This document shows positions 17,526 to 25,558 of a stretch of DNA of 64,000 nucleotides, in pieces (the stretch's first letter is position 1; each line of letters begins with the position of its first letter). The stretch lies in assembly GCF_053078305.1 (NCBI RefSeq), contig NZ_CP166879.1; one strand, given 5' to 3'. The notes beneath the pieces were generated by a model. That model was given only the letters and a program-made list of their open reading frames with translations. It was not told the DNA's origin and made no database searches. The translations under genes were made by a program, and so were the position numbers.

Positions 17526-18505
17526 TGCGCACAGGGCTGGTTACTGTAATTTTCCTCACCTTACTGCTGGTGGGATGCGTGGTATATCCAGGGATTGGTG
17601 CCCGATTTATTGCACCACAAACGGTGTTGCAGGCATTTCTTCATTTTGATCCGCAAAACTTCGATCACAGCGTAATTGTAAGACTCCGTTTGCCGCGTTT
17701 AGCGGCAGCATTGCTTACCGGTGCTTCTCTTGGTGTTGCCGGTGCTTTGTTGCAGGCTGTCATTCGTAACCCATTGGGGGAGCCACATATTTTAGGCTTA
17801 AATGCCGGAGCCGCTCTTGCTGTCGTTGCCGCCAGTGCGCTTGGACTGGCCTTTCCGGCTGGACGCCCACTGCTGGCATCTACGGGGGGCGCGTTATTGT
17901 TCCTGTTGATATTGCTGCTTTCCTCCGCAGGGCGTTCAGGGTTAACGCCAATGAAAGTTACTTTATGCGGCGTGGCGCTATCGGCGTTCGTGTCCTCAAT
18001 AACGGCTGCAATCCTGATTCTTGACGAACAAACACTGCTGGCGATGCGGACATGGCTAGCAGGTGATTTAGCGGGGCAGGATTGGGTGACGCTGGGTACG
18101 TCCGTCTGGTTTTCTCTGGGGGGATTTGTGTTAGCCATTTACCTTGCGCCCTCTCTTAACATGTTGGCACTGGGTGATCGCATGGCGCAGGGGCTGGGCG
18201 TCTCGGTACTCCGCACGCGAACATTCACCCTGCTTGCGATCGCGTTGCTCTGTGGCGCAGCCGTATCGATTGCTGGCCCCATTGGTTTTGTCGGCCTGCT
18301 AGTACCGCAGATTGTCCGGCGTCTGGTATCAGCGGATCTGCGCGTTCTGCTCCCTCTTTCAGCTTGTGTCGGCGCGCTTTTGTTATTACTGGCAGATATT
18401 ATTGCTCGGACGCTCTTCACGCCCCATGAGTTAGCGACCGGTGTCATGACGGCGTTAGTTGGTGCGCCTGTTTTTGTCATTATGGCGACGAGGATGTTCA
18501 AATGA
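17522..18505 (+). CDS. ABC transporter permease, FecCD family
   Basis: 327 aa polytopic membrane protein; start overlaps the ATPase stop and its stop overlaps the next start (ATGA), indicating translational coupling. Confidence 0.85.
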   Translation: MMRTGLVTVIFLTLLLVGCVVYPGIGARFIAPQTVLQAFLHFDPQNFDHSVIVRLRLPRLAAALLTGASLGVAGALLQAVIRNPLGEPHILGLNAGAALAVVAASALGLAFPAGRPLLASTGGALLFLLILLLSSAGRSGLTPMKVTLCGVALSAFVSSITAAILILDEQTLLAMRTWLAGDLAGQDWVTLGTSVWFSLGGFVLAIYLAPSLNMLALGDRMAQGLGVSVLRTRTFTLLAIALLCGAAVSIAGPIGFVGLLVPQIVRRLVSADLRVLLPLSACVGALLLLLADIIARTLFTPHELATGVMTALVGAPVFVIMATRMFK

Positions 18506-19551
18506 GTCGGATAATGAACGTCGGGCTACGCCCACTACGTGTTGGTAAGTTTTCGACACTGGTACGCCCTAAAAATCTGGTGTTGCTTGGTGGGCTGTTT
18601 CTGTTTGCGGTTGGAATACTGATATTCGGTCTGATGCATGGTTCTTTTTCTGTCCCGGCATCGGAAGTAGGACGAGCGTTGTTTGCTCCAGAAAACGTAA
18701 GCACAGACGCACGTTATATTGTGCAGGATATTCGCTTGCCGAGAGTCATCATGGCATTGCTATGCGGAGCCATGTTAGGTATGGCGGGGGCCGCGATGCA
18801 ATCCATTGCGCGTAACGGCCTTGCCGATCCTGGTTTAATCGGCGTCAAAGAAGGATGTAGCGTGGCGGTGCTGTGGCTGATTTTCCAGTTTCCAATGCTG
18901 GGAATGTTCTGGCGTCCAGTGGCTGGTCTTGCTGGTGGCTTGTTGGTGGCTTTAATCGTGATTTTTTGTGCACGCGATATTTCCCGCCCGCGATTTGTTC
19001 TGATTGGTATTGGTGTTTCCTGGTTTTTCGCCGCCGGTATCGGTGTATTTATGACCACTGCAGATGTTCGAGATGTACAAACTGCATTGATGTGGTTATC
19101 GGGAAGCCTGCATGCAGCTAACTGGATGTTAGTCGGTATTTCAGCCTGTTGGATGTTGCCAGCCACTCTTTTATTGCTGTTCACCGCCAGGACGGCGGAT
19201 ATCGCTCTGCTTGGTCATCAGGTTGCAACCGGGTTAGGGGTGAATAGTTCTCGTCTGGCGTTGTTACGTGTCGCCGCACCAATAATCCTGACAGCCGTCT
19301 GCGTTTCGTGTGTTGGTAACATCGGTTTTGTCGGATTGATAGCACCCCATATATCACGTTTTATTCTACGTGGCGGGCAGACGACATTACTGCTGGGGAG
19401 CGCCGTATCGGGGGCGTTGTTAGTCATCCTGGCGGATAGCATTGGTCGTTTGGCTTTTTTGCCTTTGCAACTGCCTGCCGGAATCATTATTTCATTGATT
19501 GGTGGACCATTCTTTTTGCTACTGCTCTGGCAGTGCAGGAACAGTTTTTAA
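18502..19551 (+). CDS. ABC transporter permease, FecCD family (second subunit)
   Basis: 349 aa polytopic membrane protein paralogous to the preceding permease. Confidence 0.85.
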   Translation: MSRIMNVGLRPLRVGKFSTLVRPKNLVLLGGLFLFAVGILIFGLMHGSFSVPASEVGRALFAPENVSTDARYIVQDIRLPRVIMALLCGAMLGMAGAAMQSIARNGLADPGLIGVKEGCSVAVLWLIFQFPMLGMFWRPVAGLAGGLLVALIVIFCARDISRPRFVLIGIGVSWFFAAGIGVFMTTADVRDVQTALMWLSGSLHAANWMLVGISACWMLPATLLLLFTARTADIALLGHQVATGLGVNSSRLALLRVAAPIILTAVCVSCVGNIGFVGLIAPHISRFILRGGQTTLLLGSAVSGALLVILADSIGRLAFLPLQLPAGIIISLIGGPFFLLLLWQCRNSF

Positions 19552-19561
19552 TGGGAGTTAT

Positions 19562-20509
19562 ATGCGTTTATTTTTTTCTCTGCTGATACTGTTGTCATTC
19601 TTTGCCCGCGCGACAGAACCTGTTCAGGTCTTTACTGATGATTTAGGGCGCAAAGTCACTGTTCCTGCTCATCCAAAGAGAATTGTCTCTTTACACGATC
19701 TTGATATCACTATTCCTCTGATTGAGCTCGGTGTACCTCCTGTCGCCAGCCACGGGCGAACTCGGCCTGACGGTAGCCATTTCATTCGATCAGGCGCGTT
19801 ATTGACAGGTGTCGACTTTGATAATTCATCGATCGCTTTTATTGGCACCGCTGATATTGATATTGAAGCGATTGTGGCGGCAAAGCCTGACCTGATTATC
19901 ACAGAACCGACCCGTAATACGCCCATTGAACAACTGGAAAAAATTGCGCCCACGGTGAGCATTGATCATCTCAAAGGAGGCGCGCCAGAAATCTACCGCA
20001 AGCTGGCAGAACTGACAGGAACGCAGTCGCAGCTGGCGATACTTGAACGCCGCTATCAGGCACAAATCAATGCGCTGAAGGCGACGCTGGACAGCCAAAA
20101 AATAACGGTATCGGTGATTCAGGCAAATCAGGGAAAAATTAATGTGATGCATAGCTATCATTCGCTGGGGCGGGTATTACGCGATGCTGGTTTTCGCTTT
20201 CCGCCGCTGATTGAGAGCATTCCTGAAGGTGGGCGAATGGATGTGAGCGCGGAGCGTTTACCTGAACTGGATGCCGATTTTGTTTTTGCAACCTGGCGCG
20301 GTGACACCGGTGGTAAACCTCAGGATGAGCTGGCAGCAATGGAAAAAGTCATGCCGGGATGGTGTCAGTTTCTGACTGCCTGTCGTTCCGGGCGTTATGT
20401 GCTGATTTCTCGTGAAGAGGCAATTTCTAACTCCTTTGCATCTCTGGGGCTGATGGCTGCGCAGATACAATCACAAATTGCGGGGCGACCTTTACCGGAG
20501 GCCAAATGA
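19562..20509 (+). CDS. Periplasmic substrate-binding protein (FepB/FhuD-like) of the ABC importer
   Basis: ORF track 19499..20509; preferred start is ATG 19562 (SD gggag) giving signal peptide MRLFFSLLILLSFFARA. Confidence 0.8.
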   Translation: MRLFFSLLILLSFFARATEPVQVFTDDLGRKVTVPAHPKRIVSLHDLDITIPLIELGVPPVASHGRTRPDGSHFIRSGALLTGVDFDNSSIAFIGTADIDIEAIVAAKPDLIITEPTRNTPIEQLEKIAPTVSIDHLKGGAPEIYRKLAELTGTQSQLAILERRYQAQINALKATLDSQKITVSVIQANQGKINVMHSYHSLGRVLRDAGFRFPPLIESIPEGGRMDVSAERLPELDADFVFATWRGDTGGKPQDELAAMEKVMPGWCQFLTACRSGRYVLISREEAISNSFASLGLMAAQIQSQIAGRPLPEAK

Positions 20510-21393
20510 TTCAGAAAGACAAAACGCGGGTTGATATTTATGGTGAGCGTTTTCGCACTCGCGCGAGTCAGTTAACGCCTGGGTTAAGAGCTGTCGCCAG
20601 CTATATTAATGAGCATCGTGAAGTGGTACTCGAGCAAACGGCGATGGAAATTGCGGCCACGTTGAACACTTCCGATGCCACAGTTATCAGGGCTATACAG
20701 GCCCTGGGGTTTGCCGGGCTGCGTGATCTGAAACGCACTCTGGAACAGTGGCTTGGTCCAGCCCTTAGTTCCAGCGAAAAGATGTCTACGACGGTGAGTA
20801 ACTTGACGAGCGATGTTAACACCGCAATCGACTTTGTTCTTGAAGGGCATTTGTATACCTGTAATGTCCTGTCAGAGCCTGAAAACCGCCACGCGCTTGC
20901 GCAAGCGGTAGCGTTGTTGGTACAGGCACGGCAAGTCGCAATTTTTGGCATTGGCGCTTCGGGTATTCTGGCGGACTATACCGCACGACTATTCAACCGC
21001 ATAGGTTTGCCAGCCACGGCACTAAACCGTACGGGTATTGGCCTTGCCGAGCAACTGATCGCGCTTCAACGTGGCGATGTTCTGATCATGATGGCGCAAA
21101 AATCTGCGCACCGGGAAGGGCTGACAACGCTGCGTGAAGCGAGACGGCTGGGGATCCCTGTTATTTTGCTGACAAACGCGCTGGATTCACGTTTTAGCAA
21201 AGACGCCAGTATCGTGATTCATGTTCCGCGCGGGGATGAAAAGGGGAAAACGCCACTACATGGTACGGTATTGTTGTGCCTGGAAATGATTGTCTGGTCG
21301 GTGGCTTCCGCGGTGCCGCAGCGTGCGGTTAAAACCATTAAGCGAATTAACGATTTCCATCGGGGGCTGAAAACGGGAAGAAAGAATGGCTAA
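20506..21393 (+). CDS. RpiR-family transcriptional regulator (N-terminal HTH plus C-terminal SIS phosphosugar-binding-like domain)
   Basis: 295 aa; HTH region (EIAATLNTSDATVIRAIQALGF) and SIS-like region (VAIFGIGASGILADYTARLFNRIG); start overlaps the binding-protein stop. Confidence 0.85.
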   Translation: MIQKDKTRVDIYGERFRTRASQLTPGLRAVASYINEHREVVLEQTAMEIAATLNTSDATVIRAIQALGFAGLRDLKRTLEQWLGPALSSSEKMSTTVSNLTSDVNTAIDFVLEGHLYTCNVLSEPENRHALAQAVALLVQARQVAIFGIGASGILADYTARLFNRIGLPATALNRTGIGLAEQLIALQRGDVLIMMAQKSAHREGLTTLREARRLGIPVILLTNALDSRFSKDASIVIHVPRGDEKGKTPLHGTVLLCLEMIVWSVASAVPQRAVKTIKRINDFHRGLKTGRKNG

Positions 21394-21401
21394 TCTGACC
21401 T

Positions 21402-21437: not shown

Positions 21438-21752
21438 TTAAATCCCCGGTTGCAGAATACGGATATTCATCTCCAGCACGTCGCCTTTTACGGCTTCGCT
21501 GTACGCCTTCATGTGCGGGGTTTGCAGATGCGCTTCAAGGTGCGCGATGCTTTCCCACTGCTCAATCATCACGATAGAGTCCGGTGCCATAGACTGGAAA
21601 CTCACGCCAGCAGCGCAATCCACCATTGGCGCATAGCCGTGGCAACCTTCTTCTTTCAGTACGGTTGGAACGATTTTAGCAAACTGATCCAATACCGCCT
21701 GACGGTGATGTTGACCAGGACGAGTACGGATTTCTGCGATTACGGTAAGCAT
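21438..21752 (-). CDS. ygiN: Quinol monooxygenase YgiN (ABM domain)
   Basis: 104 aa, MLTVIAEIRTRPGQHHRQAVLDQFAKIVP... recognised. Confidence 0.9.
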   Translation of the reverse strand: MLTVIAEIRTRPGQHHRQAVLDQFAKIVPTVLKEEGCHGYAPMVDCAAGVSFQSMAPDSIVMIEQWESIAHLEAHLQTPHMKAYSEAVKGDVLEMNIRILQPGI

Positions 21753-21782
21753 GGTTAACTCCTTCTAAAGCCTGAGCTCTAG

Positions 21783-22364
21783 TTAACCAAAAATTTCCAC
21801 AAGATGCTTGCGATATTCTTCAGTATAGCGGGGAACATCAGGCATTTTTATCACGTCATTAGCGATAAATGTCGGCAGCGGTTCCATGCCAAGGAATTGG
21901 TTTGCTTTATGGAACGGCAGATACACACCGTCGACGCCAACGCCGTGGAAGAATTGATCTTTTTCGGTGAAGGCTTCCATTGGTGCGTTCCAGGTCAGAG
22001 AAAGCATATATTTTTTGCCCTGTACCAGGCCGCCGGAACCGTATTTTTTCGACGGATCTTTGCGGGTACGACCATCGCTGGCATACAGCGTCCCGTGACC
22101 TTCGGTGAATACATCATCAATGTATTTTTTCACTGTCCACGGCGCGCCCATCCACCAGCCTGGCATCTGCCAGATCACCACATCAGCCCAGAGAAAGTTT
22201 TGTACTTCCGCTTTGACATCGTAGTCGCTGTCGGCGCGAACGATGCGAACATCATGCCCGAGGTCGCGCAGTGTGCCATCCGCGACTTCGGTCAGGGTGT
22301 CGTTCAGTTGACCATTGGAGTGGGCGAATTTTTTCGCGCCGTTGATAATCAGGATGTTGCTCAT
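21783..22364 (-). CDS. mdaB: NADPH:quinone oxidoreductase MdaB
   Basis: 193 aa flavodoxin-like protein (MSNILIINGAKKFAHSNGQLN...); recognised. Confidence 0.9.
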   Translation of the reverse strand: MSNILIINGAKKFAHSNGQLNDTLTEVADGTLRDLGHDVRIVRADSDYDVKAEVQNFLWADVVIWQMPGWWMGAPWTVKKYIDDVFTEGHGTLYASDGRTRKDPSKKYGSGGLVQGKKYMLSLTWNAPMEAFTEKDQFFHGVGVDGVYLPFHKANQFLGMEPLPTFIANDVIKMPDVPRYTEEYRKHLVEIFG

Positions 22365-22473
22365 TTTTTAACCTCAAGGTGAGACGTTTGCCGACTATAG
22401 TACGTCACAGAGCGGTACGGTGAAATTAGCAAAATGTGCAAAGTCTTTTGCGAATTTAGCAAAAGTCTTACCC

Positions 22474-23823
22474 TTACCAGCTTACCTTCGCCTCAAATCC
22501 ACCTTGTTCCGCATTCCCAAACTCAACATTCATGCCATGCAGCTTGGCGATTCGCTGGACAATCGATAGCCCAAGTCCACTGCCGGTAGCGGTTTGTCCG
22601 GGTGGGCGATAGAAGCGTTCGCCAATTCGCGCTAGTGCCTCTGGCGTCACACCGGGGCCGTTATCCCTCACGATGAAATTATCGGCATTCAGCGTGACGT
22701 CTACCACGCTGCCCTGTGGACTGTAGCGCACGGCGTTATCCAGCAAATTTCGCACCAACAAACTTAGCAATAGCGGTTGCCCGGTGCGTTTGATGCTGTG
22801 GGCATTGAGTGTCAGTCGCACGTCAATTTTCGCCTGCTGCGCCGTGTGGTAAATATCCATCACCGACGATTGCAGGAGATCTTCAAGCGGGATCTCCGCG
22901 ACGTCCTGAAGGTTATCCAGTGAGTCCAGCCGCGATAGCGTGAGCAGTTGATCAACCAGACGAGTAGCGCGATCGATCCCGTAATGTAATTGAAGCAGTG
23001 CTTTTTTCCGCGCCTGCGGATCATCGTCAGAGAGCTGCGCAACTTCGGTTTGCACTTTCAGCGCCGTTAACGGGCTACGAAGTTCGTGAGCTGCGTCGGA
23101 GGTAAAGCGTCGTTCACGAACCATCATCGCATGTGTGCGGGCGAACAGTTGATTTAGCGACTCAACCAGTGGTCGCACTTCGCTGGGTACGCCAGTCGCG
23201 TTTAGTGGTTTTTCCGAGTCAGGGTCACGCATACGTAGTGCCAGCGCCAGTTTGTTCAGCGGCGCGAGTTCACGACCCAGTAGTACCATCATGATGATTA
23301 ACATAATCGGCAGTGCGACCAACCACGGGATCAATTGCCCGGCAACAATCGCCAGCGCCATGTCTTCACGGTATTCCCATTCCTGACCAACAACGATGCG
23401 ATATTTGCCATCAGGTGAGGTCATCCAGACAAAACGCCATTGATCTTTATCGCCCACCAGTTGCCCGTCAGCAAAACCTTCCCGTTGATAGCTATAGGGA
23501 ATATCTTCTCCGTTATCGCCATCGTTAAGGACCATTCTGCCGTCGTGGGTAAAGATGGCAAAGGTCAGCGCATCGTCATCAACATGACCGTGTTTTAATT
23601 TATTTGGCGTCTGTGCCATGCGATCCGCCGCGTTGATTTCGTTGAGATCGAGCGTACTTAACCGCTTGGCAAACAGCATCAGTTGGGTGTCGAACAACTC
23701 ATCGACGTTATCCGTTGTTTGTTTCCAGGCGACAAAGCTGGAAAGCAGCCAGGTCACCGAGGCCAGAATTAAAAAGATTAGCGTCAGCCTGACGCGCAGA
23801 CTAAGACGTTGGGTAAATTTCAT
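22474..23823 (-). CDS. qseC: Two-component sensor histidine kinase QseC
   Basis: 449 aa; two TM segments, H-box [12 protein letters not shown] and ATP-binding G-boxes; overlaps the qseB stop. Confidence 0.9.
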
Positions 23824-24479
23824 TTCTCACCTAATGTGTAGCCAATACCATGCACGGTACGAATAAAATCACTACCGAGTTTGCGTCGCAGATGATGCAC
23901 ATGCACTTCAACGGCATTACTGGTGACATCTTCGTCCCAGGTATACAGTTTCTCTTCAATCAGTTTGCGCGGCAGTACCCGACCAGCGTTACGCATCAGT
24001 AATTCCAGCAGGGCAAATTCTTTTGGTTTCAGCGTTAAGGGTTCGCCAGCCAGCGTGGCGATACGTTTGCCGGGGTCGAGCATGACGTTCCCGTGGCGCA
24101 GTTCGTTGCTGGCCTGGCCGTTGGTTCGGCGCATCAGTGCTTCCAGCCTGGCGGCGACTTCTATCAACGCAAAAGGTTTACACAGATAATCGTCAGCTCC
24201 CAGACGCAGCCCCTCTACACGTTCCGCCAGCGCATCGCGCGCGGTCAGGATCAGTACCGGCTCACGCTGACCTTTTTCTCGCCATTCGCGCAAAATATCG
24301 CGACCATCCATGCCTGGTAAGGTTAAATCCAGGATCACCGCATCATAAGGCGCGCTATAAAGCGCCTCTTTTCCCTGACGACCTTGTGTAAACCAGTCGA
24401 CGCTAAAACCCATTTTACTAAGGCCCGTTTTGATGCCGTCGCCAATCAGCATGTCATCTTCTATCAGTAAAATTCGCAT
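23820..24479 (-). CDS. qseB: Two-component response regulator QseB (OmpR family)
   Basis: 219 aa; receiver motifs ([18 protein letters not shown]) and winged-helix C-terminus. Confidence 0.9.
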
Positions 24480-24630
24480 TTTTTCATCCCTGCGATAACC
24501 GTATTTGCTGCCAGTAAACCGTGTTGTAACGCGCTCTGTACAGCATTAAATTTTATTTTTTTCCCTTAAGAAGTTGTTAAGGACTATCTTGTTAAATGCT
24601 CGGAAACAGACATTAAAGGGAGTAACAAAC

Positions 24631-25075: not shown

Positions 25076-25558
25076 ATGACAAACCTGACACTGGATGTAA
25101 ACATTATCGATTTCCCATCAATCCCTGTGGCGATGTTGCCGCACCGCTATAGCCCTGAGTTGCTCAACTACAGCGTGGCGAAATTTATCATGTGGCGTAA
25201 AGAGACGGGGCTTTCTCCTGTTAACCAAAGCCAGACTTTTGGCGTCGCCTGGGACGACCCTGCCACCACCGCACCGGAAGCGTTTCGCTTTGATATCTGC
25301 GGCAGCGTTAGCGAACCGATTCCCGATAATCGTTATGGTGTGAGCAATGGTGAACTTACCGGTGGACGTTATGCCGTGGCCCGCCACGTTGGCGAGCTGG
25401 ACGATATTTCACACACGATATGGGGCATTATTCGCCACTGGCTGCCTGCAAGCGGCGAGAAAATGCGTAAAGCACCGATTCTGTTTCACTACACCAATCT
25501 TGCCGAAGGGGTGACGGAGCAGCGACTGGAAACGGATGTTTATGTGCCGTTAGCGTGA
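25076..25558 (+). CDS. ygiV: GyrI-like small-molecule-binding domain protein YgiV
   Basis: 160 aa; recognised. Confidence 0.85.
   Translation: MTNLTLDVNIIDFPSIPVAMLPHRYSPELLNYSVAKFIMWRKETGLSPVNQSQTFGVAWDDPATTAPEAFRFDICGSVSEPIPDNRYGVSNGELTGGRYAVARHVGELDDISHTIWGIIRHWLPASGEKMRKAPILFHYTNLAEGVTEQRLETDVYVPLA

Follow-up and report, generated by a model that had tools for sequence, protein, structure and literature searches.

Marboxes are assigned to classes by their orientation and their position relative to the transcription start. A class II marbox is placed in the forward orientation, overlaps the -35 region and has its centre between -36 and -55 (Trigg et al., PMC12052159); for class I, the criterion used here was the reverse orientation with the centre placed from -56 to -85. 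The marRAB operon has a class I marbox, CCACGTTTTGCTAAA, which lies in reverse about 62 bp upstream of the start. At lpxC, the marbox overlies the core promoter P1, yet holds a class II position for the promoter P2 (PMC12052159). Tandem repeats of another kind, those of PmrA/QseB, are found in the ygiW-qseB region, at a promoter neighbouring the locus considered here.

The gene mdaB is named as a member of the mar regulon in a passage citing Martin and Rosner (2002), and MdaB was described as raised via MarR/MarA, with an 8.4-fold rise with vanillin. In Salmonella, knockout of ramA lowers mdaB 3.2-fold, while overexpression of PreA (QseB) raises mdaB 7-fold in arrays and 32-fold in qRT-PCR, for which the authors propose direct binding, and raises STM3175 605-fold. 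In the same genus, preB (qseC) and mdaB are 106 bp apart and are not co-transcribed, and mdaB and ygiN form one operon. The assignment of mdaB to the MarA/SoxS/Rob regulon in the first-pass annotation is in line with the literature, which places the gene in the mar/sox/rob/RamA regulon. The gene is absent from the EcoCyc list of high-quality MarA sites, and neither the main text of the MarA ChIP-seq paper nor the main text and one supplement of the Salmonella MarA/SoxS/Rob/RamA ChIP-seq paper mentions it; ChIP-seq also missed many accepted MarA targets. A literature search found no binding or mutagenesis experiment on the mdaB element, and a full-text search for GCACATTTTGC and GCAAAATGTGC returned only unrelated eukaryotic primers among the matches listed.

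The spacer between qseC and mdaB holds two candidate marboxes, a proximal box D and a distal box U, both listed as predicted mdaB marboxes in a 2025 S2 Table (PMC12052159). Similar to class II sites, D is an asymmetric sequence of about 20 bp of the form GCAC...GC.AA, forward and overlapping a poor putative -35 region, with a centre that would be at about -43 from the presumed start, and mdaB, similar to class II targets, is the gene of a redox/detoxification enzyme responding to Mar/Sox/Rob/RamA. As at lpxC, the candidate box would also overlap core elements of a possible second, upstream start. In contrast to class II sites, candidate D lies in a 23-bp block invariant across genera; a further marbox-like dyad is found exactly 21 bp upstream of it, and a match in reverse overlaps it. 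The 15-nt core of D is identical to the mar marbox at 12 of 15 bases, the run TTTTGCTAA included, but differs from it in its presumed forward placement at about -43. With the PmrA/QseB repeats, the spacer has in common the direct repeats and the response of mdaB to PreA/QseB overexpression in Salmonella; it differs from them in half-site sequence and spacing, and contains no CTTAA repeat.

Layout and conservation of the qseC-mdaB spacer

The window (the whole stretch of DNA analysed, 64,000 nucleotides) contains, all on the minus strand, the genes qseB (23820-24479), qseC (22474-23823), mdaB (21783-22364) and ygiN (21438-21752). These coordinates leave the gap of 109 bp between qseC and mdaB that the first-pass annotation had described, and the repeat-rich string quoted there, aattagcaaaatgtgcaaagtcttttgcgaatttagcaaaagtctta, was found at 22424-22470 of the plus strand, with the inverted repeat GCAAA-N4-TTTGC located at 22438-22451. 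The features of the region are collected in Table 1.

Table 1. Positions of the features of the qseC-mdaB spacer and its surroundings in the window.
Feature	Position	Strand	Remarks
Operon mdaB (21783-22364) and ygiN (21438-21752)	21438-22364	-	Under the control of the element; from gene calls and co-transcription in Salmonella
qseC-mdaB intergenic spacer	22365-22473	-	109 bp; ancestral form, free of insertions
Shine-Dalgarno sequence GAGG of mdaB	22372-22375	-	GAG conserved
Inferred transcription start, conserved CA	22389-22390	-	C 1.0, A 0.99; 7-8 nt after the -10 hexamer; 5' UTR of about 25 nt
Inferred -10 hexamer TACTAT, conserved as G-TAnnAT	22397-22402 (G at 22403)	-	In 81 species: G 0.96, T 1.0, A 0.95, A 0.98, T 0.94
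Possible second promoter of Escherichia type	22416-22431	-	Extended -10 TGcTAATTT (22423-22431), start A22416; catalogued K-12 TSS mapped to the window
Weak -35-like hexamer TTTCAC	22420-22425	-	17 bp upstream of the -10 hexamer; overlapped by D by 3 bp; ATTT part conserved
Proximal box D, TTTGCACATTTTGCTAATTT	22423-22442	-	Candidate class II marbox, forward; centre about -43.5 from the inferred start; overlaps the -35 region
Reverse-orientation marbox match GCAAAATGTGCAAAG	22429-22443	+	1 mismatch; overlaps D; wholly within the invariant block
Nearly invariant 23-mer GCAAAAGACTTTGCACATTTTGC	22429-22451	-	Column identity 0.93-1.00 in 81 species; flanking columns drop to 0.35-0.55
Near-palindrome AAGACTTTTGCTAA-A-TTCGCAAAAGACTT	22441-22469	.	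From the inverted-repeat search; Escherichia form; outer arms not kept in other genera
Distal box U, TTTGCTAAATTCGCAAAAGA	22444-22463	-	Marbox-like, forward; centre about -64.5; 21 bp upstream of D; also the dyad TTGC-N7-GCAA
7-nt spacer of the U dyad	22452-22458	-	Sequence variable (identity 0.41-0.56); zero indels in 81 sequences
Left half-site	22459-22466	-	ATTATTGC in most genera, ACTTTTGC in Escherichia and Salmonella; identity 0.85-1.0
GGGTAAG, the seven bases separating the qseC stop from the element	22467-22473	-	Insertion point of ygiZ / the Hcp cassette in other strains and genera

The direct repeats proposed in the first-pass annotation were recovered by a repeat search of the spacer, which found the 13-nt pair GAAATTAGCAAAA / GAATTTAGCAAAA (92%, spacing 30) and two copies of the 8-nt AAAGTCTT (spacing 22). 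The inverted repeats are represented by one with 14-nt arms (86%) and 1 nt between them at 22441-22469, and by a second with 12-nt arms (92%) and 11 nt between them. Among 2000 dinucleotide-preserving shuffles of the spacer, an equally long direct repeat was present in 5, an equally long inverted repeat in 7, and both in none; the half-sites TTGC/GCAA number five, against 1.3 +/- 1.0 expected. The repeats of the spacer are real and non-random. In Escherichia and Salmonella, the dyad of U forms an almost perfect palindrome of 29 bp.

For comparison, a single genome was retrieved by way of MdaB for each of 80 other Enterobacteriaceae species, and the footprint was read as per-column identity in an alignment of 81 distinct Enterobacteriaceae spacers, one row per species. 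Upstream of the nearly invariant 23-mer, the arrangement ATTATTGC-N7-GCAAAAG is conserved; on its 3' side, two variable bases are followed by the conserved ATTT at 22426-22423. Neighbouring columns of the spacer and the 3' end of qseC vary freely. The first-pass annotation had made its reading depend in part on the conservation of the repeats across strains; the half-sites and the 23-mer are conserved in the 81 species, while the outer GTCTT repeats are not conserved outside Escherichia.

Within E. coli, the element was found directly upstream of mdaB in 5424 of the 5426 complete genomes, whatever separates it from qseC. The 89-nt core (22380-22468) is likewise present in 5424 of the 5426, identical in 4247 of them; with 5429 places in 5425 records, it is essentially single-copy.

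Insertions between qseC and mdaB

The gene ygiZ, which the first-pass annotation had tentatively placed near here in K-12, does sit between qseC and mdaB in that strain, and alignment with K-12 revealed an insertion of 587 bp between the qseC stop and the element, with the element itself unchanged. In this K-12-type allele, ygiZ is on the opposite strand; about 3300 E. coli genomes are estimated to carry it, a figure obtained by subtracting the 822 genomes with the short junction from the 4118 with at least 80% query coverage. The short junction is present in 822 of the 5426 genomes, for example in O157:H7. Larger insertions are found in about 1300 genomes, and strain C21 contains hcp, a gene for a protein of 236 amino acids and ygiZ. 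All E. coli alleles are identical from ACTTTTGC onward in the direction of mdaB, and the inserts replace only the seven bases next to the qseC stop (Table 1).

A spacer of 102-112 bp is found in nearly all of the 80 species, which belong to more than 20 genera and include E. albertii, Salmonella, Citrobacter, Klebsiella, Enterobacter, Kluyvera and Raoultella. This makes the short form the ancestral one and ygiZ what is left of an insertion. The first-pass annotation had offered as an alternative that the repeats are the scar of a deletion that removed ygiZ; this, as well as their origin as a remnant of a mobile element, would agree with the position of ygiZ in K-12 and most E. coli and with an insertion point that abuts the element, but both are ruled out. 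The short spacer is the ancestral one, short and ygiZ-bearing genomes alike carry the element without change on the side of mdaB, it is present in the 80 outgroup species, and it is essentially single-copy in each genome.

Inserts of 587 bp to about 1.7 kb cut the element off from qseC in about 85% of E. coli genomes. It stays beside mdaB whatever inserts upstream, and therefore belongs to mdaB and not to qseC. It is very improbable that the palindrome is a hairpin in the RNA where the qseBC transcript ends, acting as a terminator or stabiliser. Such a hairpin would explain why qseC and mdaB are not co-transcribed, preB and mdaB being separate in Salmonella; the pairing CUUUUGC...GCAAAAG is the sole feature of the centroid fold, and pairing at spacer positions 1/7 and 2/6 is somewhat more frequent than in shuffled controls in a weak covariation test. 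However, the stem is A/T-rich and lacks a U-tract, the spacer folds with an ordinary energy (z = -0.12), and the stem arms are kept as sequence, with no compensatory change and with one stem pair mismatched in 73 of the 81 species. Moreover, the element is unchanged in the roughly 85% of E. coli genomes where 0.6-1.8 kb with opposite-strand genes lie between it and qseC. No site was found by a scan for Rho-independent terminators in 22200-22650, and the covariance models of Rfam gave no match up to E = 1 in 22250-22600.

The inserted cassette itself comprises genes for Hcp (PF05638, TIGR03344), for the 236-aa protein, which belongs to no family, and for DUF2645/YgiZ. Citrobacter werkmanii and a Pseudocitrobacter MAG carry these three genes at this position too. 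Homologues of the 236-aa protein, all annotated as hypothetical, were found in Pectobacterium, Serratia and Erwinia. Its AlphaFold model (pLDDT 75) is most similar, though weakly, to MltE, a lytic transglycosylase (Foldseek E 0.1, probability 0.99, TM 0.44-0.53), and the protein contains an invariant WIE motif (W80, I81, E82), which suggests a catalytic glutamate. Thus, ygiZ of K-12 appears to be an orphan immunity gene, left over from a T6SS effector cassette that has decayed (Hcp / putative effector / DUF2645). At the right insertion junction, a duplicated 3' end of qseC, of the kind expected from an att-like target duplication, was sought; a faint resemblance was seen in E. coli and none in Citrobacter or Pseudocitrobacter.

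Proposed promoter of mdaB and its candidate marboxes

The conserved CA at 22390/22389, downstream of a conserved -10 hexamer, is likely to be the start of mdaB. A simple sigma-70 scan of 22200-22650 detected no strong promoter, which together with the poor -35 hexamer fits an activator-dependent promoter. A sigma-54 promoter of the form TGGCAC-N5-TTGC was considered and rejected by eye, the GC-to-GC spacing being 9 and not 11.

The nearest catalogued start of K-12, 3170500 (U00096.2; PMC12052159, S2 Table), corresponds to A22416 of the window. It lies only 16 nt downstream of the centre of D and would put D over the -10 region and not at about -43. Most other genera have TCATTT at the extended -10 site of this promoter, without the key A. 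The arrangement of mdaB at this start may be like the dual one of lpxC. In Salmonella, a published attempt to map the mdaB start failed. The supplements of Kim 2012 with TSS data contain neither the name nor the coordinates of mdaB, and the accessible portion of the TSS supplements of Ettwiller 2016 gave no match. In the S2 Table of PMC12052159, the column for position relative to the TSS is off by 10 against the difference of the coordinates where the box has a lower coordinate than the TSS, as was seen in many rows compared, and the coordinates were used here.

A marbox scan, proposed as a check by the first-pass annotation, gave for D 2 mismatches to the 20-mer consensus AYNGCACNNWNNRYYAAAYN and, for its 15-nt core, 1 mismatch to gcannwwntgnnaaa; D with at most 2 mismatches is present in 74 of the 81 species. 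U has 2 mismatches to the 15-mer consensus and is kept with at most 2 in 59 of the 81. Matches to the longer consensus are not enriched: with at most 2 mismatches, the 20-mer was found 15 times in the window against 17.6 expected. A match to the consensus alone therefore proves nothing, and the argument is made from position, conservation and the literature. For the 15-mer with at most 1 mismatch, about 23 matches are expected in the 128 kb of both strands; by our own arithmetic from this figure, the chance of a forward match in the 20-bp class II window is about 0.004.

Both boxes match the consensus on the minus strand, that of mdaB, and are thus forward. Counted from the start inferred from the conserved -10 hexamer and CA, the centre of D, at -43 to -43.5, would fall within the class II range and between the centres derived from the table of PMC12052159 for fumC (-39) and inaA (-49). 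Each box has GC at positions 4-5 and 13-14, which accounts for the four conserved TTGC/GCAA half-sites as well as for the repeats noticed in the first-pass annotation. The distal part of D (RE2) is TCAT in most genera, against TAAT here and YAAA in the consensus.

The overlapping reverse match GCAAAATGTGCAAAG has at most 1 mismatch in 73 of the 81 species and is in this sense better kept than forward D, with at most 2 mismatches in 74; the orientation of the box is therefore not settled by sequence. Centred at about -47, this match fits neither class I nor class II. For U, it is the forward match, centred at about -64, that is conserved (59 of 81), whereas class I needs the reverse orientation; the reverse match of U, GCGAATTTAGCAAAA (22450-22464), is centred at about -68 and has at most 2 mismatches in only 19 of the 81 species.

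The element is probably the cis-regulatory core of the mdaB-ygiN promoter, composed of two adjacent marbox-type sites for MarA/SoxS/Rob. Docking of these proteins is the most likely reading on the basis of the class II geometry, the similarity to the mar marbox, the conservation across genera and the regulon literature. The transcription-factor site proposed in the first-pass annotation stands as a cis-regulatory element of the mdaB promoter, with MarA/SoxS/Rob as its best reading.

In the proposed mechanism, two adjacent 20-bp marbox-type sites would lie in the direction of mdaB 21 bp, or two helical turns, apart. D (22442-22423) would overlap the weak -35 hexamer about 43 bp upstream of the presumed start, and a monomer of MarA, SoxS or Rob, or of RamA in other genera, bound there would activate RNA polymerase by the class II mechanism. 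U (22463-22444), the weaker marbox-like dyad, may serve as a second docking site or as the site of another factor. The transcription start, the identity of the binding protein and the role of U are the inferred parts of this model.

QseB, STM3175 and further constraints on the element

Direct binding of the response regulator QseB (PreA) to the element, with activation of mdaB-ygiN, is an improbable reading. The 7-fold and 32-fold rise of mdaB upon PreA overexpression in Salmonella would agree with it, and direct repeats might suit a protein of the OmpR family that binds tandem repeats. However, nothing in the spacer resembles the sequence CTTAA-N6-CTTAA (CTTAAcaacttCTTAAg) of the ygiW-qseB region (24565-24581), and a QseB/PmrA box, that is, tandem CTTAA-type hexamers about 11 bp apart, is absent from the spacer between qseC and mdaB. 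The spacings of the repeats here are 9, 21, 22 and 30 bp and not 10-11, the outer GTCTT repeats are confined to Escherichia, and the effect of PreA can be indirect, through STM3175.

The latter protein is the Salmonella representative of a long form of YgiV. In the window, ygiV (25076-25558) encodes the E. coli form, which consists of a GyrI-like domain only, while homologues elsewhere add an AraC-type HTH in front of it. The long form of Raoultella adjoins parC, as ygiV does in E. coli; another long-form homologue (P0057) has an unrelated genomic context. STM3175 is Rob-like (structure 7R3W), traps albicidin and is implicated in albicidin resistance. Among solved structures, its DNA-binding domain is closest to Rob (1e-13), RamA, SoxS and MarA, and its second recognition helix, FTRAFK, is identical to that of Rob.

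The 23 contiguous invariant bases exceed what a degenerate monomer site needs, which points to additional constraints, and the invariant 23-mer, the tandem boxes and the dyad spacer of constant length suggest that more than one protein reads the element. A less likely, tentative reading takes the dyad of U, perhaps together with all of the invariant block, as the operator of another regulator, acting beside MarA/SoxS/Rob or instead of them; candidates are a dimeric repressor recognizing TTGC-N7-GCAA and the Rob paralogue encoded at the locus, STM3175 (two-domain YgiV). The half-sites are conserved on either side of 7 nt that vary in sequence and are fixed in length in the 81 species, and the palindrome is almost perfect over 29 bp in Escherichia and Salmonella. 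This agrees with such an operator, as do the contiguous invariance beyond the need of a degenerate marbox and a weak excess of spacer pairs that extend the palindrome (0.077 against 0.057, reached by 3 of 500 shuffles). For STM3175 in particular, the strong response to PreA/QseB overexpression, 605-fold beside the 32-fold of mdaB, and the Rob-like AraC DNA-binding domain fit the same reading. On the other hand, no known motif was matched and no binding data were found, two tandem marboxes fully account for the four half-sites, and of the two spacer pairs one is formed in only 41 of the 81 species and the other in only 32. In addition, YgiV of E. coli has lost the DNA-binding domain, yet the element of E. 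coli is unchanged.

As a promoter element of the MarA/SoxS/Rob type, the element is ordinary and largely anticipated, with the regulon membership and both predicted boxes already published. What is added here is that the short spacer of this strain represents the ancestral arrangement and that of K-12 the derived one. The conserved block offers a clean target for binding and mutagenesis work, and this regulatory block is among the most conserved non-coding stretches of the locus.

A more specific proposal, which is rather unlikely, is that the 44-bp composite element (22423-22466) is not only a MarA/SoxS/Rob site but also a conserved operator of STM3175. If true, a local circuit would lead from QseBC/PreAB through ygiW-STM3175 to mdaB-ygiN, and a GyrI-like sensor of small molecules would be coupled to a quinone-detoxifying operon. 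E. coli would then have lost the DNA-binding domain of the regulator and would keep its site for the global paralogues.

The ygiZ cassette and its junctions

A three-gene cassette is located between the qseC stop codon and the mdaB control element, a conserved block in the mdaB promoter, in about one-quarter of E. coli genomes. It comprises hcp, a gene for a 236-aa protein without a known family, and ygiZ, encoding the DUF2645 protein YgiZ; no mention of ‘DUF2645’ was found in the literature searched. The window represents the empty site, at 22467-22473. The same cassette occupies the same position in Citrobacter werkmanii and in a Pseudocitrobacter MAG, and in K-12-type genomes ygiZ is the only cassette gene left.

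Start 3170452 (U00096.2), catalogued for K-12, falls on the opening T of the distal marbox-like site, box U, corresponding to window position 22464 (L001 3290-3299). It is preceded by a -10-like TAAGAT, a hexamer confined to the right-hand junction of the ygiZ insertion; therefore, the insertion may have created an extra K-12-type promoter from which transcription would run across the element into mdaB. The right junction in E. coli, GTCAGAGTAAGA, is closer to a variant of Escherichia sp. MOD1-EC7003 than to the window sequence. In this variant (L007 ~2886-2897) the qseC stop reads TCA, not TAA, and QseC would thus be longer by two codons (TGG TCA GAG TAA).

The marbox-like sites

In the genome of E. 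coli EC05 (NZ_CM169495.1, L088 2452-3566), and in this one genome, the IS5-like element ISKpn26 is inserted inside the proximal marbox-like site, box D, with the break at approximately window position 22429, adjoining CTAA. The mdaB gene of this strain is annotated as frameshifted. Both the mdaB element and the mdaB gene are naturally knocked out in E. coli EC05.

In the S2 Table of PMC12052159, the ‘position relative to TSS’ disagrees with the coordinates: in the many rows compared whose box coordinate is below that of the TSS, the listed value and the coordinate difference are 10 apart. For the mar marbox, for example, the table gives -73, although the coordinates place it at -63; for mdaB, the listed -26 corresponds to -16.

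Neighboring genes and candidate regulators

Coordinates of the features are collected in the table below. The tandem direct repeat upstream of qseB presumably corresponds to the established site of QseB/PmrA autoregulation; the mdaB upstream region contains no comparable repeat.

Features of the window and of comparison loci (L-numbers, with their own coordinates)
Feature	Coordinates	Strand	Location
PmrA/QseB-type tandem direct repeat CTTAAcaacttCTTAAg	24565-24581	-	ygiW-qseB intergenic region, upstream of qseB
ygiV	25076-25558	+	
FecCD-type permease, iron-siderophore substrate-binding protein, MurR/RpiR regulator	~18500-21400	+	directly downstream of ygiN
Cassette / ygiZ loci	L003 2324-3855; L017 1223-2754; L076 1120-2661; L001 2748-3080		

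Downstream of ygiN, K-12 and strain A30 carry parE, whereas the window contains the iron-siderophore block. The stretch spanning this block and ygiN is covered by at least 80% in 1870 of the 5426 E. coli genomes.

As modelled by AlphaFold, the 236-aa protein has a weak likeness to the lytic transglycosylase MltE, and the WIE motif is invariant across its family; because of these features, ygiZ may be an orphan T6SS immunity gene.

Of the two halves of a Rob-like regulator, YgiV of E. coli has only the one that is GyrI-like and binds ligands. An AraC-type DNA-binding domain is present in YgiV homologues of other genera and in STM3175, the two-domain form of Salmonella; the solved structures nearest to the DNA-binding domain of the STM3175 type are those of Rob, RamA, SoxS and MarA. 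A Rob-like regulator, represented by STM3175 or the long form of YgiV, is a candidate for a second protein that recognizes the mdaB element.
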